Source: Botryllus schlosseri
Lineage: Eukaryota
Reading direction: 5' to 3'
Assembly: GCA_051294905.1 (NCBI GenBank)
Contig: CM119371.1
Location: forward strand, 13,332,001 to 13,396,000
Length of the DNA stretch: 64,000 bases
The translations under genes were made by a program, and so were the position numbers. The notes below the pieces were generated by a model, which saw nothing but the letters and a program-made list of their open reading frames with translations, was not told the DNA's origin and did not search any database. How positions within the stretch are numbered: the first letter of the stretch is position 1; every line of letters starts with the position of its first letter. Positions 295 to 42,359 of this stretch are shown in pieces.

Positions 295-492
295 CTGCTG
301 TTATCTTCTTGCACATTGGCGGCTTCATGTCCCACATGCCATCCTTTCCACAAGTCGCATACCGATAGTATTTGCCTTCGTAGTACTTGTAATATCCCTC
401 GTTACACTTGAAACGGAGTTGGTTGCCGACGGAGTAGTCTTTCTTGTTTGGCTTGAGTGTGCCGTGTTCGAATTTCGGCATTTTGCAGTACA
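295..492 (-). CDS. Gene A exon 15, CCP14
   Basis: YCKMPKFEHG...CGKDGMWDMKPPMCKKITA. Confidence 0.9.
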
Positions 493-3400
493 CTGTTATC
501 GTAAAATACAAGTCACGCCTTCAGCAATATGGAATGCCTTCGTAAAACATCGGGTAAGACTTAGCAAGAAAACATACACATTTGATCAAATTATTCAGTA
601 ATATTTTGGTTGTCGAGTAAGTGTAGCAATACTTGCGTAGTAAAGGTTGCAGGATGTTGACTCGATATGGAGTAGCAATTTCCGATTATATATGTTACCG
701 GACCGTCAAATCCATTAACGGGCAAAGCATTTGGTGTCTTGTTGTAAGACCGAAAGTTGAAGGAGCACTGCGCTCAAAAAATGATGTGGTCTCAAATTGA
801 AGGGCAAAACGAAAAAATAAATTTGGCGGCGGCAGTCACGCAGAGAACGAACTTTAGACATATTTTCTTCATAACATCGGCTGACGACTATATAAAGTTC
901 GTTCTCTGCGTGACTGCGTTATCGCGTCCAGCAAGTGCGACGGTGAAGACATCGTGCCATGTAACGGGTTAACCAGCCGCGGCAGCTAGAGCGTGAAGAT
1001 CCTGTGGAAATTTCAATAAATTGCAGCTTCATTACGGTGGCGTTCTGAAGAAAATGGCTGCGGCCCTTCAATTTGAGACCATATCATTTTTGAGCGCAGT
1101 GCCCCTTTAATACTGTTAACACTCTTCGTTCGGCACTTGGTGTATATCTCACTAATTGCATAACAAATTTCCTCATCGAATTTAGCCAATGGAAATATTC
1201 ACAAACAAGGACGCGGTATCTCAGTATTGTATAATCTAACAGCGGAAAATAAAATTTTGCTGCATTTTAGCCGATACAAATTTTGCCAGAACGATTTATG
1301 GTTTCGACTCGTACTGAGTGAGTTATATTTTAGGTATAAGAGTGTATTATGTTACATTTCGGTCTTGTGTCAAATAATACTGATTTCGACTATACGATTA
1401 AAAATTAAATGCATAACTTGACATGACCGTTAAAATAATCGCAATACATTCAGTCTACGGTAACGTTATACTGGCTAACCATTAGACGAGAAGAGCACAG
1501 ATTCAGTTTTTTTAGGGACCGCGTTCCAAAATCTACACGGGATAAGGATTCAGAATTTTTTGAGAAATTGGATTTGGTAATGAAATTTTCAGTTATATGA
1601 AATATCCTTGTTATTATTACTTACTCAATGTGCGGGAATATTCTCGGATTATAGTTTCGATTAACAATAGTTTAACCACTGATGACTCTCTGGTAATACT
1701 TCCATCAACCTACGTTTCTTCATATCCATGCACTTGGGTGATTTGTACTTCCATTTCCCGTCCATACAAACGTTATATTCGTATTCTTCTCCTCTGTACA
1801 TTTTCTTGAATCCCCTGGCACATTGGTAATAAAGCTTCGAGCCTTGTTGATATCGTTCAAACATCGGCCAGTATGATCCATAATAGAATTCCGGCGCGTA
1901 GCAATAGTCTGTAAACAGTGGGAACAATGTATAGTACACCCAGGTAATTTAAATGGGCGCCAAACATACTCATCATCACTTTCTTGCACATCGGTGGTTT
2001 CCTGTCCCAATACCCGCCCGGTTTGCACATAGCGTAGTCATATCTCTCGCCCTCGTAGTAGAGCTCGTAACCGTCTTTGCATTTGTAGCTGACTTTCTCG
2101 CCGTACGCATATTTGGATTTGGACGTCATGGCCATACCGTGTTCAATCACGGGAGCGTCGCAATAAGCTGAACATTAGTGTGCCGTGTAGAGGTAAGTGA
2201 GATTATGCTGCTAATTACATGCATCAGCTATTTGATTGAAATCATTGTTGAATAAAACTTGAAATAAAAATGGGGCAAAGCCGTCAGCATTCCGAGCATA
2301 GCTACATCTTGCAATATTGCATTAACATAGCATTCAAGATTTATTAAAACCCTCCTTCACTCTATTCTGAATTCAGCTTTTAATTTTATAAGAGTTCATT
2401 GGGGTGCTGAAGACTATGGCCAGGGGTGTGAAACATAGGGCCCACGAAGCTATAACGGCTAAGTTAAAATGATTGTATGACACCGCACATTTCCATCCAA
2501 AGCTCTCTCCCGACAGAAAATGTCGAAGTACGCTTACTGCTCACATACCAAATTATAACATTCTGGTGGCAATGTTGCGCTTTTACTAAACTCACCATCA
2601 GTAGCAAGTCTGTGACATTGGCACCAAATTGCGAGACGGTAAGAAAGAAGGCAAGCACTCAGTTCGGTTCATGAACCGAAAGATATAGTCATTAACGTTG
2701 ACGAAATCGCCAATGCTGAACATAATGCACGTTACATTGTGCTCAAACAATATAGCGTAAGTGGAGCGCTTCTCTGAGCAAAACAGTCCCAGGCCTCAGA
2801 AAGTCATTTGTCCCATATTTTATTCAGCATTTATGTCCTTTTAGTGTATGTTAGTTGTAGTGACAAAATTGTTTAAGCTCTTCAGTGAACTCAGTGTATC
2901 GAAGTTTTCCATCATAGAGTCAAAAGGTTGGATTCCTTTACTAAATTCCACTTTCGTTGGTATTGAGTACGCTGTTGAGTTGGAATCCGTAACGTTCATG
3001 ATTGCTGTCGGCGTTTAAATGACATCATATGCATAGCAAGCGAAGTCTAAACTAGTTATTAATATGTGGCGGTGAGCAGCTCCTCAGATTTTCATCGGCA
3101 CCTCCGCGGCAGATACAGTCTGTCTAAATGAATTCTTGCAGATATCAGACTTATAGTCTGTGTAAACGTGAACTCAGTTTATCAGAAAACTGCATTAACG
3201 TCATGATAGATATCAGCAATAATGCGAAAACAAAAGTTGTTTTGACTCTATATTCTGTGATCACCGTGACAATTCGTATATACAGGTCTCAGAATCAAAT
3301 CTTCTTCAAGCAGAAAATGTCATAGGAAAGCTACCTTACAATTTAGTACGTAACGCATATTTTGTGGATGTATCGAAACGGAATTCCGGGTAACACGATC

Positions 3401-6400
3401 TTGCGCTTCACGAAACAGGTCTCCATACCTTTCGTGGCCATTTTGCACATTGGATGCATGAATTTCCAATTTCCATCGCCCATACAGATGTTGTATTCGA
3501 ACCAATCTTTTCCGTACATCAACGTGTATCCCTCCTTGCATTTGGTGTAGTAAAGACGATCTCCTGGACTGTACATCTTCAGCGCGGGCGTGTACTTTCC
3601 GTGTTCGAAGTTCGGTGGATCGCAGTAATCTGCAATTTTACAGTGATATTTACCTTTATTATCATTACCCTACATCTAATCGAATGCGAGAGATAAACGA
3701 TAGATAACAGATTCCTTCAAGCTCAGAGGAAAGTTTGCAAGTGCTTTATGGCGTGGATTTCGTGCAGTAGTATACATAGTTCGATAGTAACCTCATGTTT
3801 GCGGGGTGTGTGAAGTTTATTCTTGTAATCATTACTTCATCAAAAGAGTTTTCTTTTCTTAATCTGTTCTATTATCAAATGAAATTGCAAGAAAGAAAGA
3901 ATGCAGGCTTACCTATCTTGTGGCTTTTGCACATCGGCGGCTCTTTGTCCCAAATGCCATCTCTTCCGCATGTAGCATACTCGTACTGATCCTTCCAATA
4001 ATACATCCCGTAGCCGTAATTGCACTTGAATCGCAAACGGTCGCCATAGTTGTATCGCCTCATTTTGGGGTAGTACATGCCATGCATGATTTTAGGAGAG
4101 TAGCAGTAATCTGAAAGAAATCATTTGGACTTTTGTTACAGGCCGATTATTATATTTTGATCGGTCCAAGACCTACACTTACACTAGTTAGATTTCAAGT
4201 CGTATGTAGGTGAGAACGCCATTCTAATCCGTCTCCACCTTGCACTGTTCAGTATTCACTCAGCAAATTTGGAGAAAATATTCACTAAATCTGGACTTCA
4301 CCCATTGTTTGTCATTTTGTGGCATACAATTAGCTCAATAACCCTATTACATAGATTTTTCAGAGTGAACTTAGAAATCTTACTTTTGTGCGCAGACTTG
4401 CACATGGGCGGTGGGTGATTCCACATTCCGTTTTTGCACATGACGTAGTCGTACTTTTCCATGTCATAATGCAATTTGTAACCGTCTTCGCAGTCATAGT
4501 ACACTTTTTCTCCATCTTTGTACCAGCTTTTGTTTGGTCTTCGTTTGCCGTACATTACGTCATGTCCCATGCAACCAGCTGAATTCAATGTAGGATTCAT
4601 CATTTCAAAAAACTAGCGAATGTACAACTGTCGAAGCCTACGTTGATGAACATGAATTGCTTGTGCAGCAGATTAGTACGCTTTTGAATTTATGATGCTT
4701 CCGTACAATATGTCTATGTTTAGGAGAAATGACAAAACTACGATAACGCCATTTTGTATTTGCGACGCCATATTTGGTTTTTAAAAGATGCAAGTACTTT
4801 CATCGCTAAAGCGCCATCCAGTTGCAAATTTCTGGTTTTGAGTAACATGAATAGTAGCTATAATATTACTATTGTAGAGTAGACGCGATTAGTCCATATA
4901 GATCCGGTTTGATGAAATCAGCAAACTACTTGACGATATTTATAACATCTTGAAAGCACATACTTGAGAATCAAGTTCAAATAACTGAAAATCCGTACTC
5001 AAATTACGAATAAAAAGCGATGCTGATCAGGTTCATATCACATACTTCAGCAACACGCATAGCTGTTTTTTTTTAATTTGATGTGGGATAATTTTTATCC
5101 ATCACATTACTGTGATTTATAATTTCTTTTGTATATATTCTGGTTTTTGGGATATTCCGGTAATTTATATGTTTAATTCTGAAATGTAAGAGAGTAGTTT
5201 GCTGAGAATCTGCACCAATGTTATTTAAGATTTTCATAATAAAAACCGTGTGAGAAAGTCCCTGTACGCGTACCTTTGTAAATTAATATATTTTTGACAA
5301 TCGTATGTACCTGTAGGGTCAGTCAGACTAGCGTAAGATACATCCTTTAATTTCGATTGCAGCCACATGCCACATTCATCTACTGCTATAATCATACGAA
5401 CCCACAAACAATTGGATCGTTGAAACTTATTACTGGAACAACTTTCAGACCTATTATTTTTTTTAATTGTAATTGCTCACAAATATACAGCAATACTTCT
5501 ACCTTTCGTACTTGAGTAGCAACGTTAACTACTTTGGCCAACTCCATCAAATAAAAAGTATCAACCGTTGTGCGCAAATTGTAAATGCCGTTACACAGTT
5601 TGTTTTTGGCAATAATATAAAAGTCTTACATCCGCTGGAGTGCTTCATGCTCTTGCACTTGGGAGGATCGAAGTCCCATTTACCATCTTTGCCACACGTG
5701 CGATATTCATACCAGTCAGTTTCGAAAAACAGCCCATATCCCTCTTTGCATCTGTGGTACATTCTATCTCCTTCCATATACATTTTCATGTCAGGAAAAT
5801 GATAGCCATGTTCGACCATGCCGGGCATGCAATATTCTGAAACGCATTGGAGTTTTTCACTTGTAAGCGTCGGGTCTTTATGGGATAGCTCCGTATATAT
5901 TGGCTAATATCGTATTGAAGACTCACTCATAGTCATAGGTCTGCATTTAGGTGCTTCGAAGTCCCAGTTTCCATCGTTCTTACACGTTGCGTATTGAAAC
6001 CAGTCTTTGTCGAAGAACAGTTTGTATCCGTCCTTGCATTTGAAAGATATGCGTTCCCCTTTTTGGTATTTCTTTTTCGTGGGCATGACCATTCCGCCGA
6101 AGTAAGGTTTCTTGCACATTACTGATAAACATTTGATTTGGATCTATTACGAGCAGGTACTATCTATATGATATTTCATAACAGTATATTCATAAACGGA
6201 TTACGTCTGACACTTCTAATTGACGAAATTATACTAGGCAATTCGCCTATTGTAGAAGCCTACGTCGTAGTAAGGTAGTATCTATATCATTTCTTGTGAG
6301 AATATAGGAATTGGGTGCTAGATCGCCGCCCGAAATTTGCACATTTCTTTCAAAATATTTATAAAGAGCGTAGATGATACACACTCGATATGTTTCAAAA

Positions 6401-9400
6401 AATCGAGAACACTTCCTTGCATAACGCCATTCCCTCTCGCGTATAGAGAGTAGCCTATCTCAGTCCGCTTGGCGGCTACTTCAGGTTTACGGCAATATAT
6501 TGGGCGTCGATTCAAGCACTATGGATGGCATTTTATGTTTTTTTTTTATGGATAGAGTGAAATTTTGGTCAGGGGGCTGGCCGATTTCGAAGGGTTATTA
6601 TATGCTTGTAAATTATAGTAGCAATGAAATTCTAAGCATAAAGTTAAATATCCAACTCGATCAAAATACGAAAGTTAAGTTAATCGCCAACAATTGCCAT
6701 CAGCGTACGGAAAAATACTAATTTGAAGAAAATTGTGTATCTAGTATGCGCAGAAAGCAAAATGCATACACCTGTACTTCCATATAATCACGAAAGGCCA
6801 CCCGCGAGGTAGAACTATGCAGTGTACCTTGTTTCAATATGCATCTTGGCGGCATGAAGTCCCACATCCCGTTTTCCATGCAGGTAGCGTATTCATACCA
6901 TGGTCCGTCGTAAAATAGCATGTATCCTTCGTCGCATTTGTAAGACACCCTGTCCCCGTAAAAGTAGTGATTCTTGTTAAGACGTGGCATCCCATGATCG
7001 ATCATTCGTTTTTCACAGTACTCTGAAGAAATTGAGATACCGGTTAATATTCCATACTGACGCCATTTTATGTCTTACAGCTTTATTCTTGTAAGATTAT
7101 CTCGCGCATATAACACAATTTTCACTTACTCATGCATTTATACGGAGATTTGTCCCAATTTCCATCATCTTTACACATGGCCTTTTCATAGTCGTACTTG
7201 GTGTGTTTGCGATAACCGTCCATGCACATAAACTTGATATATTCACCTTTCTTGTACATATTCTTGGCATAAGGCTTGTGATTGTAATCCATATGCTTTG
7301 GAGCCATACATTTTTCTGTAATGGACGTAATTAGTCATCGGATGATTGCAGGGAGTTACAATCCAAGCCGGAACCGTTTGCGTTTCTAGGAAATATTTCT
7401 TACAAAATCATCTAATTTTCAAGTTACGCTACATCTACAAGTTTTAATTGGCGTACTAAAACGATATCAGCTATATGACTTCTCGCATAAAATGCATTAT
7501 TCCATAGCTGCATAATTACACCATAGATTCTTATAAACACTCATGTCATAAACATGAGTATGATCATATTCCCATACCCCAAAGCTAATTTCCGATCTTA
7601 CTCACTTTCACTTTCACATTTATACGGCATGTTGTCCCAATTGCCGTCCTTCATACAAGTTGCCCACATGTAGCCATATTGTTCTGGCTTCTTGTAGTCG
7701 TCCTTACAGTAGTAATACATCTTGTCACCGTGCATGTACATTTTCTTAGCGTAAGACTTGTGATGGTACATCATGTGATCCGGGGCGCTGCAGTATTCTA
7801 AAACGAATATGTTCAGAATAAGAGTTTGTCGATGATATTGCTGTTTTCAGATTTGCCTGCTTTATGTTAAGCAGTTCATCAATTTTAAACAAAATACATT
7901 TCAGAACATTGTAACAGCCACTGGAGTCAACATTGAAAATGTTGGGCGCAGATATTGAATTCAATCTTGCTAATCAGTGAGCTGTCATGAGCCCTGTGGT
8001 ATTTAATGAATCCAGTGGTGGTTTTGTACTGACATTGCTTATTATACTAACTTTCGGCAATCATCTATATTCCGTAGGCTACAGCGAATATTATATGACT
8101 TAATTACCCATTGAATTAAATGAATTGTACAATACAATACCGGATAATCAATTTGTGCAGTTTAATACTTAACCACGGTTCAATAAATGTAAGCTTAGTC
8201 TATTGATTGTATGTTAGAATGAAGCCTCGTATTATGAGGAATCCATGTTGACGTGAATATACTAATAAAATAGAAATAATATTACCAAAGTGTACTGGGA
8301 AATGTCCAAATAATACGTATATAGAGCGAGTTATATTGCAGTCACTCGCTAGCAGTGCGTGATGACTAAAAATCCGACGAATAACAATCTGATGGTCACT
8401 TCATCATGTTTTGGAATGGTTTTAGACATGAATTAGACACATTATTGCATCCAGCACTCGGGATAACGGGATCACTTTATCACATAATTATGATTGATAA
8501 ATATAAAGGTCATGACAGTCAGAAGATAGACCTTATCTTTGCACACTATAGTCCGTAGCACAGTCATGCTGATTCATAAGTAAAATAAAATTCTTACTTT
8601 TGCACATGGGAGGTGTCCTGTCCCACACTCCGTTGTCTCCGCACTTCATGTAATCATATTTCCCCCCATCGTAGTATTTATAATACTTATCGGGACACAT
8701 AAAAGTAACTTTCTCGTCGTAGTAGTAATGGTCCTTCATGGGTTCGTATTTGTCGTAGTTCATTTTGGCCACCTTGCAATAATCTGAAGCAATAAAAGAC
8801 GATGAATTATATTGTGGTATGGCGAAACGAGGTGCGAAGGTATTCATTGACTCTGCGCAGACTCCTTACCATAGCATTTCGACGCCTGCATCCATTTCCC
8901 GTCCATTTGACACGTGGAATAAGTATGCTTTTCTCTATTTCGCGGACAGCCATAGTATACTTTGTCATTGTATTTGTAACCAGCCTTGTTCGGATAGAAT
9001 TGACCGCCGAAGAATGTTCGAGGATGCGCGCAGGGCTCTGAAATATTTACGGAAGCATAATGACTCTGCCCTTTGTCTTCAGCGGTGTGGTTTTTGTATC
9101 GTGACAAGGAACCCGTGTTGGGATCACGTTACTACCTTCGAGTCAATGCATATTTGCACCCCGCCAATTTTGGATTTCCTGTGTGTTTTACCCACCAGAA
9201 ATCTTAAGCTGTGTTGTTTGATTTCAATATGCGGATGCATGTAAATTGTGCAATCTGTGCATATGAACTAGACCACGCCGAACTATTATAAAATATGGTT
9301 GCCCACTATTTCTAAACCACTAATTTGACGACTGTCACAGCGGTGGTTCAATTATATGTTTCTAGATGAGAATGCTGCCAATAGGAACTGATGTCGAATT

Positions 9401-12274: not shown

Positions 12275-12372
12275 GGTTGATTCTTCCGACTCTCGTTCGG
12301 ATTGAAATCCACTTGTTTATTCCGTTACCAAGACTAATCAAGGCAACTTGATTAAATGAGGTTTTATCCTCG

Positions 12373-12402
12373 CATATATACACCTAGAGAAGATCACGTG
12401 AC
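12373..12402 (-). promoter_or_regulatory. Gene A proximal promoter: E-box GTCACGTGAT + TATATA
   Basis: Same order and spacing as in gene B, on the reverse strand. Confidence 0.6.
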
Positions 12403-27200: not shown

Positions 27201-30200
27201 TGTTTCAGTCCCCTTCCGCACGAAAAATCACTAATCTTGGGAAGGCAACATAGGGTATTCGAAGCAACTTCTTGCGGGCTTACTATGTGCATCTGCTTGT
27301 TAAAATTTGTGAATGAATTCTGTTATTAATATTGGTTCTTCCATATATTACTATAAAATACACCAGTAGATTTCACATCCGGTGGTTTCCAACCTTTTAT
27401 GGTCGCGCACTCATTTCCAAGTGGAAAATGTTCCGAGGTCAGCTTGCCCAGACTTACTCAATGCATATTTTGGGAGCTGATGACGTCCAACATCTTCGCG
27501 ATCACCAGAATAAAGGCAAACGACCCCCAGGTGTAGAACAACTGTCTTTGACTAAAGCCCCAAACGGCCTTAACCAACTCCACGAATATACCGTTATCTT
27601 GTAATTGCTAAACCAATTACACATATTTCAGTAAATGATGGTTATTTTTATTTAATTTTGATTGCATTTTTTGCGAGGGCGGTGCGTGGTCCCCATATTA
27701 ATATCACTATACGTTGTATCGAATCGCGCACAGCACGAGGAAAAATTTCAAATGGCATAAATCTGCTTGACAATAATATTATTTATGCTGATTTACGAAA
27801 AAATGTTGAGCCTACTTCACGCCTTCAAAATTCCGGACATTTAGGCATATTTTAGAATTTCCTCCCGGACGCAGTTTTTACAGTGAAATTCCGGACATGT
27901 CCGGGAAATTCCGGACGTATGGCAACCCTAATATATATAGTAATAATCAAAGTTGGTATAAAATGAGCTAACAATTCAATAGCGTTGCTAGGTTCATTAA
28001 ATAGCTTATTCCTGCAAAACTAAATAGCTAGATCCAATGCAACGCCTACTCCCTACATTTGTAATGTTGGCTATACAGTGGCTGTTGCAATGTATGAAAC
28101 TGCATTTTGTGGAAATTTGACGAATCTTAATCATAAAGCTGGGACATCTGAAAACAGCGATGTATTCGACAAACTCATATTTTCAATGTATTATTGTTAG
28201 AATACTGCAGTGCTCCGGATCACATGATGAATCATCACAAGTCTTACGCTAAGAAAATGTACATGCACGATGACAAGATCTATTACTACTGTATGGACGG
28301 CTACAAGAAGCCAGAAAAATATGGCTACATGAGGGCAACTTGTATGAAGGACGGCAATTGGGACAATATGCCGTTTAAATGTGAAAGTGCAAGTGAGTGC
28401 GATAGGAAATTAGGTGTAGGGCATGGACATGGTTATACTTATGTTTGTAACTTTAAATTTGACGAGTAACTGTACATTGTGTTATACAATGAAACAATAC
28501 TTCTTTTTTCGAGAACCCTTATAGTATACGCCGATTAGAATTTTTATATCTACCATTACTTGAAAATTAGAAGATTTTGTAAACAATATTTCGTAGAAAC
28601 GTAACTTGTCCCGGCTTGGATTGCCTCCCTACAATCATCAGATGCACAATTACGTCTAGGGTTGCATATAAAACAAACCGTGTTTTAAAACACTTTGTTT
28701 AAAACATGCTTTAAACAGTGTTTTAAACAGAGGCATTTTACCATTTTTTTTTTCAAGTTGTAAAATATGCCATAATTGGGTAAATAATTTCCGAAAAATA
28801 TGTTGTATGAGCCTACGGACAATTACCGCCCAATTTAGCCGACGTATATCGATATCGGATGGTTGCAACCCTCAAAATAGTCGGTTCAACAGTTATAGTA
28901 CAGATATTTCGTCAAAGGCGCTATATTTACCCTATATTTTCATCTGTCAATGTAAATTCCATTATGATGTCACAACTGAATATTCGTGACGTCAAGGCTT
29001 GAAAAAATAAAAAACATGTTTTAAATTAGGGCCTTGTTTCAAACATGTTTGTTGCTAATTGATTTTTGTTTTAAATGCAACCCAAATTACGTCCATTACA
29101 GAAAAATCTACAGCTCCGAAGCATGTGAAATACAATCACATGCCGTACGCCAAGAATACGCGTTTTTTACGTGAGATTATCCTAAATGAATGATGCTGTA
29201 ACACTTAAAATGGCGCCTGCATGGAATATTGACCGGCATCTCAATTTTTTAGAGTACTGTGAAAAACCAATGATCGATCATGGGATGCCACAGCTTAACA
29301 AGAATCACTACTATTACGGGGACAGGGTGTCTTACAAATGCGACGAAGGATATATGCTATTTTACGACGGACCATGGTATGAATACGCTACCTGCATGAA
29401 AAATGGGATGTGGGACTTCATGCCGCCCAGATGCGTAATGAAACAAGGTATATACAACAACAGTTTTACCTGACGGGTGACCGTTCGTTGTTATGGGGAA
29501 GCTTTGAGCGCATTCTATACAATTCTGTTTCAAGCTCGTACTTTTTGTGGCGCTGACGGCAACTGTTCAGCATTAACTTAACTTTCGTATTTTGTAGCAA
29601 TTGGGTATTTATTAGAGATGGTGTGAACGTGAGGTTCACGTTCGCGTTCTGTGTGTGAACCTCGGAAATTTAGAGGTCCACGTTCACAAACGAACCTTGG
29701 TAGGTTCTGCACTGTGAACCTTTTTCATATATTACAATTTTCACGTCATTATAACATCATTGGTTGAGATTTATCACATTTCAACTACGGGCCACTCTAT
29801 GCATGGCGCTGGCAGCATAAAGAATCAACACTAACCGAGCATGCACCTTCACAATCTCAAAAATTTTACATGCTTTATTAAAATAGTTTGCTCGAAATAT
29901 CCAACTTTGTGTTTGTGAATATTTATTGACTCTCTGCTGTAAGCTTGACCCGCAATCACTGTATCACACAACATCAAGAGCGAAATACGCTACAGGTGGT
30001 CAGCGAATGACGCTTATTCAACCAATCAATTAAATTGATACCGTTATCTGATATAACAAATCTAGCAAGCGTACGGGGTCCGTCCCGATTTCATGTTTCA
30101 CTGTGTCATAAAAACCAAATCCGTGCGATTTGGGTGTGGGCTAGATGCTGTAGAACTTGTTAATGGGGTAAAACCCATAGCACACTCTGCTCAACATCAA

Positions 30201-33200
30201 CGTAGCAACACTCAGACGCCGAATACATTGTCCGGTCTGGCCTAGACCGTTAAAGCCTAAGCTTATATTTCCTTCCAAGTACTCGTCGAAATTGTTGGCA
30301 AAGCGGCGGAAGATACTGATGTTATGGAATCATTATATCATTTGATTGTCCCTGATGATACATTTAGCGACGTTTAAAAAGTCAGTATGTACTTCAGCAT
30401 TGTGGCATTATGTGGCCCGAGTCGTCGTTAGGTATCGTGTATATTAATATAGGCTATCACTTCACTGAAATGTAGGGTTGGAATTAGCAATATGACGTCA
30501 CGTGACGTCATAAGTTTCACGTTCGCGTTCACACAGAACCTTTTAAAAGGTTCGTGTTCACACGAGCCTCAACCTTTCCGAGGTTCCCACCATTCCCAGT
30601 ATTTAACTTGACCCTTGGAATTGCATTGTTGCCATAATTTACAAGATTATATCAAGTGAAAATATGAGGAATGTGTATCAACGCTCTATAAAAATATTTT
30701 GAAAGAATTGTGACAATTTCGGGTGGCACGCGATCACCCAATTCTCACTAGAATTGACATTATACTCCGAAATACTACAATTGGATAAGCGTTTATTATA
30801 ATTTCGTCAATTGTGTTGTCGTCAAAAGTGTGTTGTGATGAATGCAAGGAAAATGTCATCTTAATGTTCGAAAACGAACAATTGGAAAACTTTTGAGTGC
30901 TTGTCTTCCCTCAGTACGGCGATATAGATGGATTCGTGAAATTGATTTATGGTTAAGCAACATGTGACTTGGAATTCGGAATCTTTGAAGTTTTGCTACA
31001 TTAGAATTATCAGCCGTAGTCCTTTTCTGAATAAACTGTTTCTTAATATCAAAACGAAAGTACCTGCTCTTGATATATCCAAATTAAATGTTTATCAGTA
31101 ATGTGCAAGAAACCTGACTTTAACGGAATGGTCATGCCCATGAAAAAGAAATACCAGAAAGGGGAACGCATATCTTTCAAATGCAAGGACGGATACAAGT
31201 TGTTCTTCGACAAAGACTGGTTTCAATACGCAACCTGCAAGAACGATGGAAACTGGGACTTCGAAGCACCTAAATGCAGACCTATGAATATGAGTGAGTC
31301 TTCAATGCGATATCAGCCAATATGGAACTATCCCATCATGTCCGAACGCGAACAAATGAAAAATTCCCGCTACGTTTCAGAATATTGCATGCCGAGCATG
31401 GTCGAACATGGCTATCATTTCCCTGACATGAAAATGTATATGGAAGGAGATAGAATGTACCACAGATGCAAAGAGGGATACGGGCTGTTTTTCGAAAATG
31501 ACTGGTATGAATATCGCACTTGTGGCAAAGATGGTAAATGGGACTTCGATCCTCCCAAGTGCAACAGCATGAAGCACTCCAGCGGATGTAAGGCATTTAC
31601 ATTGTTGCTAAATACATATTTTGTAACCGCATTTACCTTTATGCTTTCAACATGTTATTGATACTGTTTAATTTATAGAGGTGCCAAAGTAGTTAACGTT
31701 GCCACTCAAGTAGTAAAAGTAGTAGTAATGTTCTAAATTTGTACTCAATTACTTGTGAAAAAATAATAGGTCTAGGAATTACTGAAGTAATAAAAGTTCT
31801 AAGACTAGATTTGGCCGAGAGCTCGCATAATTATAGCAGGCAACGTATGTGGCTACTTCCGAAGTTAAGAGATCTTTCAGACTAACGCCAACTGACTGAC
31901 CTTACAGATGCATACGATCTTCAAAAATATATTCAGCTGGAGTGGGCAGGTACAGCACCTTCATCGCACGATTCGTGTGGCATTCATTATTAAAATCGAT
32001 TCAAACTTCTCAACAAACTATATTTCACTCAAAATTAAACATATAAATCGTCGGAATATCACAAAACCACAATAATGTGATGGATATAAATTGTCCCACA
32101 TAAAATTTCAAAAACGGATATGCGTGTTATTGAAGTATGTGATATGAACCTTATTATCGCCGCTTTTTTCTGCTTGGAATACGGTTTTTCAGTTATTTGA
32201 ACTTAATTCTCAAGAGGTTTCCTCCTATAATTTTCGTCAAGTATTTTACGTAGTTCCTCAAACTGAGTCTATATAGAAACGGATTCTTTGACAGGACTCT
32301 ACAAGAGTAATAATATATATATATATTAATTATCATACTCATAATCAGGAAATATGCGAACAGATGACGCTTTCTTTTTGAAAAGCAATATGGCGTCACA
32401 TATACAAAATGGCGTCTAGAGTAGTTTTGTCGTTTCTCCTAGACATTTACAATAGATAATATAGACATATTGTACAGAAGCGTCATAAATTCAAAAGCGT
32501 ACTAATCTGCGGCACAAGCAATTTAGATTCATCGAAGTAGGCTTGGACAGTTGTAGGCTACTTCCGCTAGATTCTCGAAATGATTCATCCCATATTGAAT
32601 TCAGCTGGTTGCATGGGACATGACGTAATGTACGGCAAACGAAGACCGAACAAAAGCTGGTACAAAGACGGAGAAAAAGTGTACTATGACTGCGACGAAG
32701 GTTACAAATTGCATTATGACATGGAAAAATACGACTACGCCATGTGCAAAAACGGAATGTGGAATCACCCGCCGCCCATGTGCAAATCTGCGCACAAAAG
32801 TAAGATTTCCAATCACTCTGAAAAGTCTACGCAGTCTAAGTCTACGTCTATTGAGCGAATTATATGTCACAAAATGCCAAACAATAGCTGAAGTCCAGAT
32901 GTGGTGAATACGTTTTCCCGGTTGGCTTAGTTGATTCTGAACACTGCAAGGTGGAGTGGAGGTGGATTAGGATGACTTTCTTGCCTAGGCTGTATATGAT
33001 TTGAAATCAAACTGTTGTATGCGCCGTTGTATCCGACCAAAATTTAAATTACTGGCCTCTAACAAAATTATAAATGATTTCCTTCAGATTACTGCTACTC
33101 TCCGAAAATCATGCATGGCATGTACCACCCTAAAATGAGGCGATACAACTATGGGGACCGTTTGCGATTCAAGTGCAATTATGGATACGGTATGTATTAT

Positions 33201-36200
33201 TGGAAGGATCAGTACGAGTATGCTACATGCGGAAGAGATGGCATTTGGGACAAAGATCCGCCGATGTGCAAAAGCCACAAGATGGGTAAGTCTGCATTCT
33301 TTCTTTCTTGCCATTACATTTGATAATAGAACATATTAGGAAATAATGATCTTTTGATGGTAACGAAAATAAAGGTGAATATCACTGGTAAATTGTGTCT
33401 ACTACCTACTATACGGATGACGCTTCATTTTTGTGAATCAAAGCGATCCATTCAAAACAAACCGTGTCTCGACTGAAAATTCTTGTTGCTACAGATTACT
33501 GCAACCCACCGAATTTCGAGCATGGAAAGTACACGCCCGCATTGAAGATGTACAGTGCAGGAGATCGTCTCTACTACACCAAATGCGAGGAAGGATACAC
33601 GCTGGTGTACGGCGAAGATTGGTTTGAATACAACATATGTATGGGCGATGGAAATTGGCAATTCATGCATCCAATGTGCAAATTGGCCACGAAAGGTATG
33701 GAGACCTGTTTCGTGAAACCCAAGATCGTGGTACCCGGACTTCCGTTTCTATTCACCCTCAAAATATGTATTACGTATTAAATTGTAATCTAGCTTTCCT
33801 ATGGCTTGTATGAACTGTCACGGTGATCACAAAAATATAGAGTCAAAGCGCCTTTCTCTTCGCATTATTGCCGATATCTATCATGACGTTAATGCAGTTT
33901 TTTATTAAACTGAGTTCACGTCCACAGACTAAAGTGTGATATCCGTGAGAATTCATTTTTACAGGCCGTAGCTGCTTCGGGTTTACGGATGAAAATCTAA
34001 GGATCACTGCCGCGTATTAATTACTAGTATAGGCTTCTCTTGCTCAGCATATGATGTCATTTAAGCCCAAATTGCAATCAACGTACGTGACGGATTTTAA
34101 CTCAACAGCGTAGTTATATATATCCATACCAACGAAATTGGAATTTAGTAATGAAACCCAACTCATTGACTCTATGATAAAAAACTTGGAAACATTAAAC
34201 TCACTCATGAAAGTGGAACCTAAATAATTATGTCAGCACAACTGAAATATAATCTAGAATGGCATGAATGCTGGATATAATACGGATCAAATGAGTTACT
34301 GCGGCCGGGGACCGTTTTCCTCCGAGAAGCGCCCCCGCAGATATTTACACTGTATTCTTCGAGCACAATGTGGGTTAACGTGCATTATGTTCAACAATGG
34401 CGTTTTCGTCTCTGTGAATGACTTGCTTTCGGTTCATGAACTGAACTGATGGCTTGCGTTTCTCTTAACCGCCTCACTATTTGGTACCAATGTCACCGAC
34501 TTGCTAGTTATGAAAGCGCAGCATTGCCGCCAGAATGTTATAATTTGGTATATGAGCAGTGAGCGTACTTCGCATTTGCTGTCGAGAGAGAACTTTGGAA
34601 TTAAATGTGCGAACAAATATAATCATTTTAATTTAGCAATCTTAGCTTCGCGGGCCCTATGTTTGACACCCCTGGCTTATAGCTTTTAGCATCAAAACGA
34701 ATTCCTATAAAATTAAATGCTGAAGTCAGAATAGAGTGAAGGAGGGTTTTAATAAATCTCGAATGCTATGTTAATGCAATATTGCAAGATGTATGCTTGG
34801 AATGCTGACGGCTTTGCCCCAGTTTAAAACCTTCAAGTTTTATTTAACAATGATTTTAATAGAGTAGCTGATACATATAATTAGCTTAAAGCAAAATATT
34901 GCTTACCTCTACACGGCATACTTATGTTCAGCTCATTGCGATGCTCCCGTGATTGAACACGGTATGGTCATGACGTCCAAATCCAAATATGCGTACGGCG
35001 AGAAAGTCAGCTACAAATGCAAAGACGGTTACAAGCTCTACTACGAGGGCGAGAGATACGACTACGCTACGTGCAAACCGGGCGGGTATTGGGACAGGAA
35101 ACCACCGATGTGCAAGAAGGCGATGATGAGTACGTTTGGCGCCGACTAAAATTACCTGGGTGTACATTGTTCCCATTATTTGCAGGTTATTGCCACGCGC
35201 CGGAATTTTATTATGGATCATACTGGCCGATGTTTGAAAGATATCAACAAGGTTCGAAGCTCTACTACCAATGTGCCAGGGGCTTCAAGAAATCTTACAG
35301 AGGAGAAGAATACGAATATAACGTTTGCATGGACGGGAAATGGAAGTACAAATCACCCAAGTGCTTGGATATGAAGAAAAGTAGGTTGATGGAAGTATTA
35401 CGAGCGATTTATAATCAGTGGTCAAACTGTTGTTAATCGAAACTATAATCCGAGAATATTCCTGCACATAAAGTAGTTAGTAATAACACGAACATTTCAT
35501 ATAATTGAAAATTCCATTTCCAAATCCAGTTTCGCAAAAAATTCTGAATCCTTATCCCGTATAGATTTTTTAATGTGGTCCTTTAAAATGTGAATCTGTG
35601 CTCTTCTCGTCGAATGGTTGGCCAATGTAACGTTACCGTAGACTGTATGTATTGCGATTATTCTAACAGCCATATCAAGTTATGAATTTAATTTTTTAAT
35701 CGTTTAGTCGATACCAGTATTATTTGACACAAGGCCGAAATCTAACACACTCTCATACCTAAAATATATTATACTAGGTACGAGTCGCAACCGAAAATCA
35801 TTTTGGCAAAATTTGAAATCGCCTGAAATGCAGCGAAATTTTATTTTTAGGCTATAAGTTTATACAATGCTGACATACAGCGTCCTTGTCCGTGCATGTT
35901 CATTTGACCAAATACGAAGAGGAAATTGGTTATCCAATTAGTGAGATATAGACCAAGTCCCGAACGAGAGTGTCACCACTATTTACTTCCCGTCTTACAA
36001 CAAGACAGCAAATGCTTTGCCCAATAGCGGGTAATATATATATATAATCGGAAATTGCAACTCCATATCGAGACGACTTTTTCTACGTATAATAGTAACT
36101 ACAGCAACTATGGCGGCACTTACTCAACAACTAAAACATTACTGATTAATTTGGTGTAATCCTAATGTGTCTGCTTTCTTGCTGACCCTTACCCGATGTT

Positions 36201-39200
36201 TTACAAAGACATTCCACTGCTGAAGGCGCGACTAGTATTTTCCGATAACAGTGTACTGCAAAATGCCGAAATTCGAACACGGCACACTCAAGCCCAGCAG
36301 GAAAATGTACTCCGTCGGTAACCAACTCCGTTTCAAGTGTAACGAGGGATATTACAAGCACTACGAAGGCAAATACTATTCGTACGCGACTTGTGGACAG
36401 GATCGTATGTGGGACATGAAGCCGCCAACGTGCAAGAAGATGACAGCAGGTATCAAACATTATACTCCGTCTGAAGCGTTTATAATGTTAAACATATACT
36501 ATGGCATCTTACCGTTGGAGACGATCAGTATCAGTCACCAAATTCTTCTACTAATGTACTCAAGCAGGCATTGGTTACTCAGACTACGTGCTCAAATTTC
36601 AATGCTTATACGCGAGGCTACTTCTTTTTCCCGACAGATTTAGTACCAAAGCACTGAATTAGTTACTCTTCAGAATCTGTGAAGCGGAAAGTAGTTCGTT
36701 GATAGGTTTGTATCACTTTCACGAGTGAGAGAGTCCTTTGTGACTGTACTTCAATATTTTATTCGACCATTGTCCTGAATCGTAAATCTTTCAATAGTCA
36801 TTCGTCATTGCGATGGCATCGAAATGCATTTTTCTATATGGAAAATAGATTACCTCAGTTTGATTACTATATTTATGCGACGCTTTAATCTATTTTACGT
36901 TTTGAAACTTGAATACTTATCAAACCTCTCATTTCTACTTCGAATTGGAGTATTTTGACACGCCTTTGAGACCACTACTTTTAGGCTACTCGTACTGAGG
37001 TAGCGCCACTAGGAGTAGATGCATTTCGAACTAGCCCGATGTCTCTAACCGACGAATATCATCATATCGTTTACAGGCTCTTGTATGCATATGATGGTAC
37101 CACATGGCGTCTATTCACCGATGAAGGCTAGTTACAAACCGGGCGACAGAGTATATTACCAGTGTGCTATTGGATACCGACTCAAGTACCATGATGACAA
37201 CGCGTACGTCTACAACTATTGCGGTAGAGATGGAAAATGGACTCGGAAGCAACCCAAGTGTATGAAGATCGGTAAAAGTATGTATCGAATATCCGGGCAG
37301 CTACTGAAATTCAAGTGTAGAGTAGACACATTGTAGGCCTATAGTTAAAATGTCATAATGAGTGATACTCAAATAATCGACCACAAGCTTAACACTCGTT
37401 TAGGAATCGATTTTCCCCAGCCATACAAATCCTATGGTGTCTCAGTACCTTCCTGAACGGTTCGATTACCAGTCAATTATTTACTGGTCATTATGACATA
37501 AAAAAAACTAGTTGAGAAGTAGAAAGAACAGAGTATATCAACAATCCAATCACCAAGCATGACGTCACCGACATGAAAATACGAATGATAATCGAGGTGA
37601 AGATTTCGTTCAAGTTCAAGGTACTATATTTATGTGGTACATGAACTCCTTTTGTTGGTAGTAAATAGGTTGGCATATTTTGATAAAAGTCGACTCCAAG
37701 TTATTATCAAAAAGAACAAGTTAATTGGTTACCGAAAACTAAATGATATGCATCGCCCTGTGTTAATCATCCAACGAATTGAACATTCTATGTCTACGGT
37801 TGAAATGACGCGCTCGATTGAAATGACAATTCTACCTGTAATCAGAGTTATTGTATGGACTAGGGCTAAATCTGGTAATCATGAACACTCAATCTTTATT
37901 GTATATTCGAATCATTGCAATCAAGGGTCAAAGCAGAATTGACTACGAGAGCCGTTTTGTGGAACTCAAGTCATCATATTCCCAATCAGTTCAGAATACC
38001 ATCTTTCTCAGAATACTGCTCCCCGCCGATGGTAGAACACGGCTACTACGAACCCGAGATGAAATACTACGACACCGAAGACCAGATATACGTCAAGTGC
38101 AAACCAGGGTATTACAAGTACAACGAGGGAATGATGATGAAATATTACTCTTCCTGCCAGATGGACGGCAATTGGGACAAATTACCGGAGTGCAAAAGGA
38201 TGCCAACCAGTAAGAATTTACGGAGTTTAATGAAAGTACTTCTATCCTGCCCAATTATCGCACAAAGTTTATATGTTCGCGTACAATATCTTATCCGTGC
38301 GTGTAGGTATTAGGTAATAGACTAAGGTGGTGCTCGTTCCGGTCATATGTTATCCTATATAGAATCCGTCAAAAATTCTCAACAACCTGCTACTTCTCTG
38401 TGGATAGTATTAATCTATCAGGTCCTCTGCTTATGATAGAATGTCTAGCTGCTGGGTAAAATTCAGCATTCATGTTTCGGAATCATATCAGATATTGTCA
38501 TGGAGGACAATTGACGCTTTTCGGAACAAATCTAACAGAATATGGGCAGGAAATGGTATTTGCGTGAACAAGTTAATATAGTCTGTTTACCCATGGTCCT
38601 GCGACCACAACGTATTGGGTGTAGCAAAGAAAGCCCACACAGATACTGCTATATTTATACTTGTAAGATAATTTTGTAGGCTATATAAACAGCGTATTCA
38701 ACCTTTCCCAATTAAGTATATCCGCTTTCACGCACTTTGCCATGCTAATCCGAATGATATCCCTTAAGAATACTGCAAAGTGCCAGATCACCGCGCCTAC
38801 AACCACGTGGCGTATTCCAAGATGCGATACATGGAAGGTGAATACACCAAGTTTGAATGCGATTACGGGTACTACGCCCCTGCCAACTACCGCAAACACG
38901 CGAAGTGTATGAAGGACGGAAACTGGGACGGCGAGCCGCAGAAGTGCAAGAGTAAGATTCTGCATTCTGCAATTCACTCTTGGTTCGCTATAGTAGCTTT
39001 GTATGGAACAGATTTTTTATTTTAAATCATATTACCGAATAGGTTTCGTATCATGTCCGCAACAATAGATTACATCCTTTACAAAAGTTGATTCATTTAC
39101 AGAGTACTGCATGGGAAACGATGTAATGCACGGGTACTACTATCCAATGAAAATGTACTACCGCAAGGGCGAGCGAGTGCAATACCGCTGCAAGTCAGAA

Positions 39201-40467
39201 TACCAAATGTCGTACCACGGTTCCAGGTATTCCTACATGACATGTATGGATGACGGAAACTGGGATAACAAGGCCCCCATGTGCAACAGTAAGTGATTTG
39301 GATAACACATTCAAAGCAATGAGACAAGTTGAAACTATTGATTGACTAAAAGAAACACGGTAGTAAATATTAGTGTCATAGCAAGTCTCAATGAGCATTT
39401 GTTCGAATAATTAAACGGTTATAGGCCTACCGCTACTTTGGGCGATATAATCATTTACTGAGAAACCGTGTCTGATGTTTATAAGCTTCCGCACGATGTG
39501 GTGATTGCTTGATCTGGAAGTAAATCCACAAAATGATGATGAGAACACGATTTTAACTTTATACGATCTCCATGCTCAATTGTTCATATATAGCCGACAA
39601 ACAATTCCTACTTAAGTGCTTAAGGTATGTCTTGGCTCCTCCTCGCCATCTAACCAGCGTAAGCGGTCTTATAACAATACTAGAAGTGGGCCGCGCTAGA
39701 AGTCGGCAGTTACGGAATAAAACTGAAAATTATCGGCCAGGTGCAAGTGACCACTGACCAACGACCGTACTAGTGGACAAATAGACGAATACACCAAACA
39801 AGCAAACAATAGCCAACAACGTATTTTAAATACTTCTAATGGGAGACTGTGTAAATAATAATTTCATGTAGCTCATAAACGTATATGTACCAGCTGCCCC
39901 AGTGACTGTATTAACACGCCCTGACGCCGATGCAGTCGGACAGCACAAAAAAAAAGTGAAAGCACAATGTATCGCTACAATAAATGTCATAGTGCACACT
40001 GCAAATCAATTGAGTATGGTAGCTAAAACTGTGTTGACTTTCATAACGAGACATACTCTTCGCCTGACTTTATACTCGTTAAAGGATGGGGAAAGTAGCC
40101 TAATAGAACACGACCAGTTTATAATTATCGGATAATTCAGAGGGCGAATGTTTGTGGGGATAATTTACCGGAATTCATTCGCTATGGTGGGGGTGGTGGG
40201 AAATTCACTAACTGCAAATATTAATTTTAAGTGGCTGTTCAAAATTAAATGCTCTAATCGTAACACAATATACTCGTATTCCAGAAAACTGCGGCGTTCC
40301 CCGTCCCTATTCCTACGCCTTCTTCTACCCGGGGAATAAATACTCCTACTCTTACGGGGAAAAGATCACGTTCTACTGCAGCCGCGGATACAAACTCAAT
40401 AAAGCGTATCAGCAAGTATCTTGCGGTCGTGGCGGCAACTGGAGGGCTGAACTACCAAAATGCATCC
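24182..40467 (+). CDS. Gene B: secreted multi-CCP/Sushi protein, Tyr/Met/Lys/His-rich (signal peptide + 18 intact CCP modules, ~1170 aa), paralog of gene A
   Basis: Exons: 24182-24236, 24666-24848, 26156-26323, 26410-26595, 28201-28392, [broken module 29102-29170], 29253-29447, 31099-31293, 31381-31587, 32605-32799, 33088-33285, 33495-33695, 34932-35129, 35186-35380, 36252-36449, 37077-37271 (or 37277), 38012-38209, 38769-38951, 39103-39288, 40285-40467. All introns are GT-AG, phase 1. Intact exon lengths match the gene A counterparts. The terminal exon is ambiguous. Confidence 0.93.
24666..24848 (+). CDS. Gene B exon 2, CCP1
   Basis: CDKPNVKYATMRSSHDMRGGKYPSGSAVWIKCWDGYEMKGKERLNCDSSNNWDSDMPMCI; cttgcag / A|gtaagt. 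Confidence 0.9.
25618..25801. mobile_element. hAT-type MITE in gene B intron 2
   Basis: TIR TAGGGTTG / CAACCCTA, perfect TSD GCTGTGAC; single GCTGTGAC at the gene A site (~9334-9341). Confidence 0.9.
26156..26323 (+). CDS. Gene B exon 3, CCP2
   Basis: PCAHPRTFFGG...CQMDGKWKQASKCY. Confidence 0.88.
26410..26595 (+). CDS. Gene B exon 4, CCP3
   Basis: YCKVAKMNYG...CGDNGMWDRTPPMCK. Confidence 0.9.
26852..27930. mobile_element. hAT-type non-autonomous element in gene B intron 4
   Basis: TIR TAGGGTTACCATA / TATGGCAACCCTA, TSD ATATATAT, tccggac subterminal repeats. Confidence 0.88.
28201..28392 (+). CDS. Gene B exon 5, CCP4
   Basis: YCSAPDHMMNHHKSY...CMKDGNWDNMPFKCESA. Confidence 0.88.
28657..29085. 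mobile_element. hAT-type MITE inserted just upstream of the CCP5 acceptor of gene B
   Basis: TIR TAGGGTTGCAT / ATGCAACCCAA, perfect TSD ATTACGTC; same family as 25618-25801; empty site in gene A. Confidence 0.9.
29102..29170 (+). pseudogene. Truncated remnant of the CCP5 exon in gene B (pseudo-exon or 23-codon linker exon)
   Basis: KSTAPKHVKYNHMPYAKN aligns with gene A KCMAPKHMDYNHKPYAKN; the rest of the module and the original donor are deleted. Confidence 0.8.
29253..29447 (+). CDS. Gene B exon 7 (CCP)
   Basis: YCEKPMIDHG...CMKNGMWDFMPPRCVMKQ. Confidence 0.88.
29613..30598. mobile_element. hAT-type element with GTTCAC/GTGAAC subterminal repeats
   Basis: TIR TAGAGATGGTGTGAAC / GTTCCCACCATTCCCA, TSD gtatttat/gtatttaa; an internal segment recurs at ~14870-15030. 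Confidence 0.8.
31099..31293 (+). CDS. Gene B exon 8 (CCP)
   Basis: MCKKPDFNG...APKCRPMNM; A|gtgagt. Confidence 0.9.
31381..31587 (+). CDS. Gene B exon 9 (CCP)
   Basis: YCMPSMVEHG...PPKCNSMKHSSG. Confidence 0.9.
32605..32799 (+). CDS. Gene B exon 10 (CCP)
   Basis: GCMGHDVMYG...PPPMCKSAHK. Confidence 0.9.
33088..33285 (+). CDS. Gene B exon 11 (CCP)
   Basis: YCYSPKIMHG...PPMCKSHKM. Confidence 0.9.
33495..33695 (+). CDS. Gene B exon 12 (CCP)
   Basis: YCNPPNFEHG...HPMCKLATK. Confidence 0.9.
34932..35129 (+). CDS. Gene B exon 13 (CCP)
   Basis: HCDAPVIEHG...PPMCKKAMM. Confidence 0.9.
35186..35380 (+). CDS. Gene B exon 14 (CCP)
   Basis: YCHAPEFYYG...SPKCLDMKK; follows a 56-bp intron. Confidence 0.9.
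36252..36449 (+). CDS. Gene B exon 15 (CCP)
   Basis: YCKMPKFEHG...PPTCKKMTA. Confidence 0.9.
37077..37277 (+). CDS. Gene B exon 16 (CCP); donor after either 37271 or 37277 (both phase 1)
   Basis: SCMHMMVPHG...CGRDGKWTRKQPKCMKI(GK). Confidence 0.85.
38012..38209 (+). CDS. Gene B exon 17 (CCP)
   Basis: YCSPPMVEHG...CQMDGNWDKLPECKRMPT. Confidence 0.9.
38769..38951 (+). CDS. Gene B exon 18 (CCP, His-rich subtype)
   Basis: YCKVPDHRAYNHVAY...CMKDGNWDGEPQKCK. Confidence 0.88.
39103..39288 (+). CDS. Gene B exon 19 (CCP)
   Basis: YCMGNDVMHGYYYPMKMYY...CMDDGNWDNKAPMCN. Confidence 0.9.
40285..40467 (+). CDS. Gene B exon 20, last CCP (NCGVPRPYSYAFFYPGNKYSYSYGEKITFYCSRGYKLNKAYQQVSCGRGGNWRAELPKCI)
   Basis: ttccag acceptor, C|gtaagt donor, 183 nt; not in the ORF track. 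Confidence 0.88.
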
Positions 40468-42258: not shown

Positions 42259-42359
42259 GAAATCACCTGCAGCAAAATAACGCATCAATCAATTCAATGC
42301 CATTTTCCGAATATGTAATAATTATATACAGTGCATCTAATGTTCCTAATTTATTCCAG

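Follow-up and report, generated by a model that had tools for sequence, protein, structure and literature searches.

Tyrosine- and methionine-rich Sushi-only genes form a tandem trio in Botryllus schlosseri and encode a candidate cross-linkable extracellular scaffold

What a long, apparently secreted protein built of nothing but Sushi, or complement control protein (CCP), modules can be for when most of those modules are loaded with Tyr, Met and Lys is the question raised by a 64,000-nucleotide stretch of the genome of the styelid ascidian Botryllus schlosseri (the window, G000:C1:13332001-13396000, in an assembly whose searched sequence totals 495.5 Mb). A sequence-only reading had described two such genes there, here named A and B, as a pair of candidate substrates for cross-linking through 3,4-dihydroxyphenylalanine (DOPA) or metals. 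The present analysis shows that the family forms a tandem trio of gene copies in B. schlosseri and that the gene set is live, being spliced, intact and under purifying selection. As for function, it is possible, although short of an even chance, that the family is a cationic extracellular matrix scaffold of 18-19 disulfide-bonded Sushi modules, which would be cured via oxidation of predicted surface tyrosines.

The exons were called by a six-frame scan together with a splice-aware exon scan. Gene B, on the forward strand, consists of a 55-base leader exon (24182-24236) followed by 18 CCP exons from 24666 to 40467. Gene A is oriented head-to-head with it on the reverse strand, with its leader exon (12220-12274) and 14 CCP exons within the window, from 11813 down to 295; it has 19 modules in total, five of which lie to the left of the window. 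A third intact copy, gene C, also with 19 modules, is encoded on the reverse strand 14-53 kb to the left of the window, and the supposed pair is in fact a trio. Self-alignment has revealed that genes A and B are an inverted duplicate, 70-88% alike across exons and introns, and all the CCP exons of both are bounded by AG..GT, stop-free and in phase 1-1. The 55-base exon of each gene encodes a short, hydrophobic leader, a predicted signal peptide (assigned by eye) which would direct secretion. The predicted proteins, of ~1170-1240 residues, hold Sushi as their sole Pfam domain type. All 19 modules examined score above the Pfam Sushi cut-off of 20.7 bits, exactly four Cys are found in each of the 56 modules of the three genes, and both Cys and Trp are invariant across 32 aligned modules.

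The expectation that these proteins would have neither a transmembrane or glycosylphosphatidylinositol (GPI) anchor nor an enzyme exon was borne out. No membrane-like stretch appears, the top 19-residue hydropathy within any module being 0.11, and the last exon of gene B, reached by an RNA joint from 40467 to 42360, adds only Arg-Arg-stop, so that no membrane anchor or GPI tail is encoded; the homologous last exons end gene A with Arg-Leu-stop and gene C with Arg-Tyr-stop. Gene B, previously taken to finish with its last module at 40467, accordingly has its 3' end at ~42365-42470. An exon-like block at 40772-40800 (forward strand), which shows an acceptor and an early stop and is conserved in A and C, was also considered as the end of gene B and rejected, because the RNA joints bypass it and land at 42360; it could be a minor alternative last exon. 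The features of gene B are listed below, its CCP modules having all been called by the exon scan and Pfam.

23074-24181 (+): upstream block with a TATA-like site near 23228 and a donor-like site at 23325 (self-alignment; putative role)
24182-24236 (+): leader exon, start codon and predicted signal peptide (likeness to gene A; translation)
24666-24848 (+): CCP module 1
26156-26323 (+): CCP module 2 (a single contig of run X3 links it to module 3)
26410-26595 (+): CCP module 3, with 12 Tyr, 10 Lys and 6 Met in 61 whole codons (folded; mean predicted local distance difference test score, pLDDT, 88.8)
28201-28392 (+): CCP module 4 (donor picked by likeness to gene A)
29085-29158 (+): module 5 relic, exon front only, first Cys codon altered (self-alignment; also in contig C17)
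29253-29447 (+): CCP module, family position 6
31099-31293 (+): CCP module, position 7 (joint 31293/31383)
31381-31587 (+): CCP module, position 8 (joint 31587/32605)
32605-32799 (+): CCP module, position 9 (RNA joint from position 8)
33088-33285 (+): CCP module, position 10
33495-33695 (+): CCP module, position 11
34932-35129 (+): CCP module, position 12 (joint 35130/35188)
35186-35380 (+): CCP module, position 13 (joint 35380/36252)
36252-36449 (+): CCP module, position 14 (joint 36446/37074, cut +3)
37077-37277 (+): CCP module, position 15 (joint 37277/38012, contigs and four raw reads)
38012-38209 (+): CCP module, position 16 (joint 38209/38769)
38769-38951 (+): CCP module, position 17 (joint 38951/39103)
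39103-39288 (+): CCP module, position 18, with 11 Tyr and 8 Met in 61 whole codons
40285-40467 (+): last CCP module, position 19, of canonical length and Met-poor
42360-42473 (+): last exon, Arg-Arg-stop and 3' untranslated part, AATAAA at 42468 (GT..AG joint 40467/42360: 54 raw reads of X14, contig of X1)

The corresponding features of gene A are as follows; its modules come from the exon scan unless otherwise indicated.

12275-13382 (-): upstream block, a putative promoter with 5' untranslated part (self-alignment, 78% likeness to its counterpart in gene B; putative role)
12220-12274 (-): leader exon, start codon and predicted signal peptide, 18 codons plus one base (89% identical block at the gene B leader)
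11631-11813 (-): CCP module 1, the least biased (AG..GT phase 1-1 exon)
8870-9037 (-): CCP module 2, short
8598-8783 (-): CCP module 3
7606-7797 (-): CCP module 4 (exon covered by a contig of run X2)
7130-7315 (-): CCP module 5, lost from gene B (also Pfam; joint to module 6 in run X4)
6828-7022 (-): CCP module 6 (joints 7020/7130 and 6121/6828)
5927-6121 (-): CCP module 7 (joint 5836/5927)
5630-5836 (-): CCP module 8 (joint 4578/5630)
4384-4578 (-): CCP module 9 (joint 4110/4384)
3913-4110 (-): CCP module 10 (joint 3629/3913)
3429-3629 (-): CCP module 11 (RNA contigs)
1970-2167 (-): CCP module 12 (joint near 1907/1969)
1714-1908 (-): CCP module 13 (RNA contigs)
295-492 (-): CCP module 14 (the stop exon and modules 15-19 are found to the left of the window, L001)

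The composition of these modules sets them apart. A total of 202 candidate cores yielded 195 that passed a neutral CCP profile and 187 after removal of duplicates. Genes A, B and C contribute the 56 modules of the family set. The genome background comprises 58 other Sushi modules, taken at 50 loci that surround the 150 top candidates out of 1066 given by Pfam, and therefore leans towards canonical modules and represents a subset of PF00084; a wider background of 94 modules adds 18 from factor H and 18 from coral. Tyr reaches 13.9% in the family against 5.0% in the genome background, Met 8.1% against 1.1%, and Lys 11.8% against 5.1%. His is only mildly raised (3.0% versus 1.4%) and Trp stays near background (2.5% versus 2.0%), while Ile, Leu and Val together amount to 5.3% versus 14.9%. 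At least eight Tyr are found in 38/56 family modules and in 1/94 of the wider background, and at least four Met in 41/56 and 0/94, respectively, counts in which the paralogous modules are not independent of each other, so that P values computed from them are overstated. The suspicion that such a composition is atypical of Sushi modules was thus upheld, and the residue counts made by hand for modules 3 and 18 of gene B were reproduced exactly. The codons for Tyr, Met and Lys are AT-rich; nevertheless, AT mutation bias as the source of the excess was ruled out by a GC content of 0.60 at third codon positions and 0.53 at four-fold sites of the family genes, and by the fact that Ile, Asn and Phe are not raised.

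Where these residues would lie on the module has been approached by modelling and alignment. Module 3 of gene B was modelled as a CCP beta-sandwich, and in fold comparison it comes closest to CCPs from MASP-1/3, factor B and CD46 (template modelling (TM) score 0.7-0.85, E ~1e-3 to 1e-2, none at or below 0.001). By sequence, the best PDB matches are CR1 and factor H. When the core is defined as those alignment columns in which 70% or more of the background residues are hydrophobic, each family module carries 5.3 non-core Tyr (of 8.1) versus 1.0 in the background, whereas core Tyr numbers 2.8 versus 1.8; for Met, 4.4 of 4.7 residues are non-core, versus 0.5. The extra Tyr are predicted surface tyrosines, lying mostly at columns that are polar in other Sushi modules and in a family-specific aromatic insertion of four residues between Cys2 and Cys3. 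That stretch has a median of 17 residues instead of 13 and holds 4.5 aromatics versus 1.2; at one of its sites, where 86% of background modules have Gly, the family mostly has Tyr. The half between Cys1 and Cys2 is basic (+2.0 versus +0.3), with frequent Pro-Met-Lys-Lys-Met-Tyr-like runs, and the calculated charge of the whole chain is +56 to +64 at pH 7, with a calculated isoelectric point (pI) of 8.9.

Relatives were sought in a set of 5.8 billion proteins, in which a match requires shared 5-residue words and 5/592, 2/517 and 8/586 candidates passed. The only close relatives found there are proteins of Styela clava, and these word-indexed searches returned nothing outside Styela except generic CCP proteins of 23-32% identity; a protein atlas likewise gave generic Sushi clusters only. 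One cluster, P0001 (XP_039261760/62/65, 'complement factor H-like', 1315 aa), has several gene copies and 20 modules, and the other, P0002 (XP_077969782-84), is labelled 'complement receptor type 2-like' (1671 aa). The first of these names is the very label that had been anticipated from annotation pipelines. Both clusters share with the Botryllus copies a leader plus ~20 CCPs and nothing else, the Tyr/Met/Lys bias, the 17-residue Cys2-Cys3 spacing and the basic charge, and the Styela relatives end in Arg-Tyr-stop, as does Botryllus gene C. Since P0001 is even richer in Tyr (17.8%) than the Botryllus copies, the bias predates the split of the two species. Modules 1-5, 7, 10-13, 17 and 18 of gene A best-match P0001 in rising order, with 36-61% identity, while the middle modules have been duplicated separately in each lineage. 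In addition, one CCP of P0002 (XP_077969783, residues ~1094-1317) carries an insertion of 224 residues with 70 His and 82 Asp, present in 5/5 cluster members and missing from the Botryllus copies, which hints at a candidate metal-binding tract somewhere in the family.

The Styela annotations are automatic, and the literature search found no paper naming six of these accessions. The Sushi module is known and these relatives stand in RefSeq under automatic names; the family and its composition are new to the literature searched, a scope that leaves aside subscription papers and bioRxiv supplements, and a Botryllus cDNA with short consensus repeats reported in 1995 could be one of these genes. 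No term match for the family was found in the supplement of an endostyle transcriptome (PMC9953650).

Conservation towards Styela distinguishes between the enriched residues. In 12 ordered pairs of gene A and P0001 modules, with Cys, Trp, Gly and Pro excluded from the comparison residues, 48/66 non-core Tyr are kept, versus 137/383 other non-core residues. In contrast, non-core Met is kept in 15/51 cases, its most frequent swap being to Lys (11/56), and non-core His in 4/13. According to these data, selection acts on the position of Tyr and on the quantity of Met. Moreover, Tyr is favoured over Phe, with a Tyr/(Tyr+Phe) ratio of 0.84 in the Botryllus family and 0.94 in P0001 versus 0.62 in the background, which suggests that the hydroxyl, beyond the ring itself, is under selection. 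Of the 19 Phe of gene A, 12 are Tyr in Styela.

The gene set is live by several measures. GT..AG exon joints occur in at least nine places in gene B and at least seven in gene A, with raw RNA reads at three; these counts cover the best-supported joints, most of them in contigs assembled from runs tentatively classed as RNA, mapped at 92% and 95% likeness. As paralogues can cross-map, a joint is evidence for the family and not always for the individual copy, and the joint between modules 5 and 6 must derive from gene A or C because gene B has lost module 5. No joint from leader to module 1 is among the best-supported ones, and none was seen in the upstream blocks of genes A and B. The ratio of nonsynonymous to synonymous substitution between copies (dN/dS) is 0.15, 0.11 and 0.11 over 18, 18 and 17 equal-length modules.

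A material function is preferred to that of a single-site regulator since the same surface design recurs 17-18 times on a rigid basic chain and the phenol is under selection; that gene copies have multiplied in both Botryllus and Styela, with varying module number, has also been counted in its favour. The chain, if secreted as its leader suggests, would bind tunic cellulose or sulfated glycans through its basic surface. A phenoloxidase or haem peroxidase could then turn Tyr into DOPA-quinone, dityrosine or halotyrosine, Lys might act as nucleophile in the cross-linking, and Met would fill space as a soft hydrophobic residue and buffer oxidants. A cationic, Tyr-rich design on a disulfide-bonded repeat scaffold is also seen in DOPA adhesives such as mussel foot protein 2, although the scaffold of mussel foot protein 2 is EGF, whereas the present family is made of CCPs, is Met-rich and has no Tyr-Lys enrichment. 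According to the portions of the sources available, tunic fibres are cross-linked by phenoloxidase and phenolic peptides discharged from ascidian granulocytes (PMC5465252, PMC10531651), and the holdfast adhesive of Halocynthia roretzi, a related stolidobranch ascidian making a DOPA-type adhesive, uses halogenated DOPA according to the accessible part of its report (PMC13079984). The Oikopleura house, as presented in the available portion of its description, shows that the cellulose-based extracellular matrix of a tunicate can contain CCP modules, with oikosin 17a, oikosin 23 and other house proteins holding such modules and being secreted beside peroxidasin-like enzymes; those oikosins have one or two CCPs among other domains, with no Tyr or Met richness mentioned in that portion (PMC3390340). 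The house proteins were not recovered as homologues in the word-indexed protein searches.

Several observations weigh against a cured scaffold. The KY/YK pairs that had suggested adhesive chemistry are frequent but lie at chance level in shuffles of the same modules, with 103 versus 106.7 expected over 56 modules (as neighbours in sequence, not in space), 36 versus 44.0 in gene A and 45 versus 49.0 in P0001. YY pairs number 84 versus 60.1 over the 56 modules, an excess that arises because paralogues are counted three times, as gene A alone gives 27 versus 23.2 and P0001 alone is not raised either; both pairs were consequently rejected as motifs in single-protein tests. Burial was judged by a proxy from the alignment, and conserved exposed Tyr would equally fit plain binding surfaces. 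Transcripts of gene B are scarce, with an exon depth of at most ~2 in 12.9 million records of bulk library X10, and its last joint is covered by 54 reads in 10.0 million of bulk library X14, a low level; one single-cell run searched with the 5' and middle exons of gene A gave near-nil transcripts. To our knowledge, high Met is atypical of catechol glues. Finally, the Halocynthia adhesive consists of short peptides of 1.5-2 kDa in which catechol makes up ~50 mol%, alongside Glx, Ser and Gly, a composition other than that of a Sushi chain, and the accessible part of that paper makes no mention of sushi, CCP or complement (PMC13079984). Of the Tyr-displaying cross-link scaffold proposed from sequence, then, the conserved non-core Tyr and the preference for Tyr over Phe have held, while Tyr-Lys adjacency and the likeness to a known ascidian DOPA adhesive have not.

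One alternative is a soluble immune protein, which would either regulate ascidian C3 in the manner of factor H or opsonise polyanionic surfaces, its unusual composition then serving to bind surfaces. Its architecture, a leader and ~20 CCPs with nothing else, is indeed like that of factor H and resembles the complement-activation regulators (RCA; factor H, CR1, CR2, C4BP), which are secreted and CCP-only, with ~20 modules (here 18, 19 and 19) of the same fold (TM ~0.8). In botryllids, as far as the available text tells, C3 and Bf are present along with putative regulators made of CCPs (PMC5465252), and a NACHT gene adjoining the cluster is at most circumstantial. However, the best matches to P0004, a probable factor H as judged by length and sequence, are scattered, with 24-45% identity and no order (P0004 being the comparison, not CR1), as opposed to the largely ordered matches to P0001, and no module-by-module correspondence with factor H appears. 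P0004 also differs in having 5.8% Tyr, 1.6% Met, a pI of 6.1 and nine N-glycan sites, versus ~14%, 8-9%, 8.9 and one or two in the family. In a quick tree of 149 modules and 59 columns, from which B and C modules were omitted and in which shared composition can draw rows together, 51/56 family modules and one background module fall on one branch with weak support (Shimodaira-Hasegawa-like approximate likelihood ratio test, 82); the terminal family modules stand outside it, and the factor H and fish RCA modules stand apart. Taken together, the scattered factor H matches and the separate branch suggest that a single altered module has expanded within this lineage and that the chain is not orthologous to factor H. 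Its modules resemble recent internal copies of a single design, in contrast to regulators, whose modules are specialised. Regulatory CCP triplets carry an ordered signature, M5-M3-M1-M2(-M4), according to the consulted part of PMC6683126. The strong purifying selection between copies has also been set against an immune role, which is judged unlikely.

A non-covalent, multivalent glycan binder, whose Tyr and Trp would stack on cellulose or other sugars and whose Lys would bind sulfate, so as to tie tunic fibres or pack granule glycans, is a minority possibility but one that should be kept in mind. The aromatic-rich insertion in most modules, the conserved non-core Tyr and the net charge of ~+2 per module versus +0.3, concentrated between Cys1 and Cys2, and the calculated pI of 8.9 all fit it; cellulose-binding modules have planar aromatic strips, and some CCPs bind heparin. 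Both tunic cellulose and heparin-bearing blood cells have been described in the sources, as available (PMC5465252, PMC10531651). Nonetheless, stacking alone requires neither the preference for Tyr over Phe nor Trp at background level, and the Met excess is left unexplained. As this function and the cured scaffold overlap, a structural role of either kind is probable, though not strongly so. A further alternative is that the proteins, in blood cells or tunic, serve as a sink for metals, halogens or oxidants, with Met and His binding soft metals or absorbing HOCl/HOBr and Tyr taking iodine or bromine: Met is 7-fold above background and conserved as an amount, not by position, MxM/MxxM motifs number 59 versus 46.8 in shuffles (a weak excess, with three paralogues pooled), and Styela P0002 bears its His/Asp insertion. 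Yet the window proteins have no insertion of that type and no His clusters, with one or two His-His pairs per protein; all Cys are of paired type, four per module; and metal sites usually need fixed ligands, while non-core His is seldom kept. Of the Met/His metal clusters suggested earlier, the raised Met is real but poorly kept in position, and we regard a sink as quite improbable. Most doubtful of all is another secreted coat or hormone substrate, namely an egg coat, a larval tunic or a substrate for thyroid-hormone iodination (PMC12992692, PMC13078365, both in part). Iodination suits large, Tyr-dense secreted proteins, ascidian egg coats are formed by repeat-module proteins, and scarce bulk transcripts would be in keeping with a gene confined to certain stages or cells. 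In the available portions, however, S. clava is credited with a thyroglobulin-like precursor with multiple Tg1 domains and >2000 residues, and neither that text nor its six supplements mention Sushi or complement proteins (PMC12992692); a thyroglobulin substitute was consequently lowered as a candidate, given a family with Sushi only, ~1170-1240 residues and no Tg1.

An extension of the cured scaffold would be a folded glue or tunic protein with dual chemistry, in which catechol, dityrosine or halotyrosine links through Tyr are supplemented by sulfilimine links that a haloperoxidase would make between Met and Lys, which are enriched together and interchange. We hold little expectation of this, the sulfilimine bond being known to us from collagen IV only. 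If it were true, a chordate immune-type module would have been rebuilt into a named, high-mass protein partner for the hardening of tunic cellulose. Little is known of the proteins that bind and harden the ascidian cellulose tunic, and the literature surveyed names only short phenolic peptides; the present family is a high-mass candidate with a fixed fold, in which each predicted surface Tyr can be mutated. Were curing shown, underwater adhesives could profit from a scaffold of Sushi modules that stay folded with Tyr at 14-18% and Met at 6-8%. Furthermore, the label 'complement factor H-like' in ascidian genomes can cover a different design, which bears on the age of complement regulators.

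A possible tie between these genes and single-cell markers of Botrylloides diegensis was explored and rejected. In the accessible part of the report, a cluster 8 marker called 'CR1' adjoins a carbonic anhydrase gene, and a cluster 7/17 marker called 'CSMD3' adjoins CPSF3 (PMC12212465); in B. schlosseri, 0/34 carbonic anhydrase matches fall near the locus, the nearest lying at ~9.8 Mb, and CPSF3 maps to another contig. Rearrangement could mask a true link.

Regarding the copies, searches of the genome for the family (56/118 and 51/68 candidates matched) returned, with single modules as queries, the trio cluster, two further copies on contigs C17 and C23 and one 38% match. Contig C17 bears a copy of gene B with its flanks, 93-97% identical, which is probably the other haplotype. 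It has the same relic of module 5 as gene B (29085-29158), in which the front part of the exon is left and ~430 bases including repeat sequence separate exon from intron (28656-29158). On contig C23 (L007-L009, G000:C23:56000-75000), the last three modules and stop exon occur twice, as mirror images whose arms translate identically; it is likely an assembly palindrome or, alternatively, a fourth partial copy.

No enzyme partner was found in the window by a Pfam scan of 121 stop-free stretches between and to the right of the genes. Between A and B, a broken SNARE gene remnant lies at 18473-18853 on the reverse strand (Pfam SNARE, E 5e-4, weak, in three frames), which presumably resembles the end of syntaxin-5 and also occurs in the C17 copy. 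A retroelement end fragment at 44184-44705 (forward strand) gave weak RNase H and zf-RVT matches below the cut-off. An interspersed repeat of ~550 bases is present in four copies, 70-79% alike (10458-10979, 49229-49781, 58292-58811 and 60263-60822), one of them within intron 2 of gene A, and is heavily covered by RNA contigs from elsewhere. The flanks of the family cluster hold a NACHT gene, an MFS transporter, retroelements, an adhesion-type receptor and a ubiquitin hydrolase. The NACHT-domain gene (L063:5069-6595, reverse strand) lies directly to the left of gene C, while just to the right of the window there is an L1-like non-LTR (long terminal repeat) retroelement (L069:996-6002, forward strand) with frames of 520 and 1148 aa and endonuclease, reverse transcriptase and zf-RVT domains. 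Two near-identical reverse transcriptase elements, which we assume to be Penelope-like, run in opposite directions at L071:2529-9375, with frames of 860 and 769 aa.

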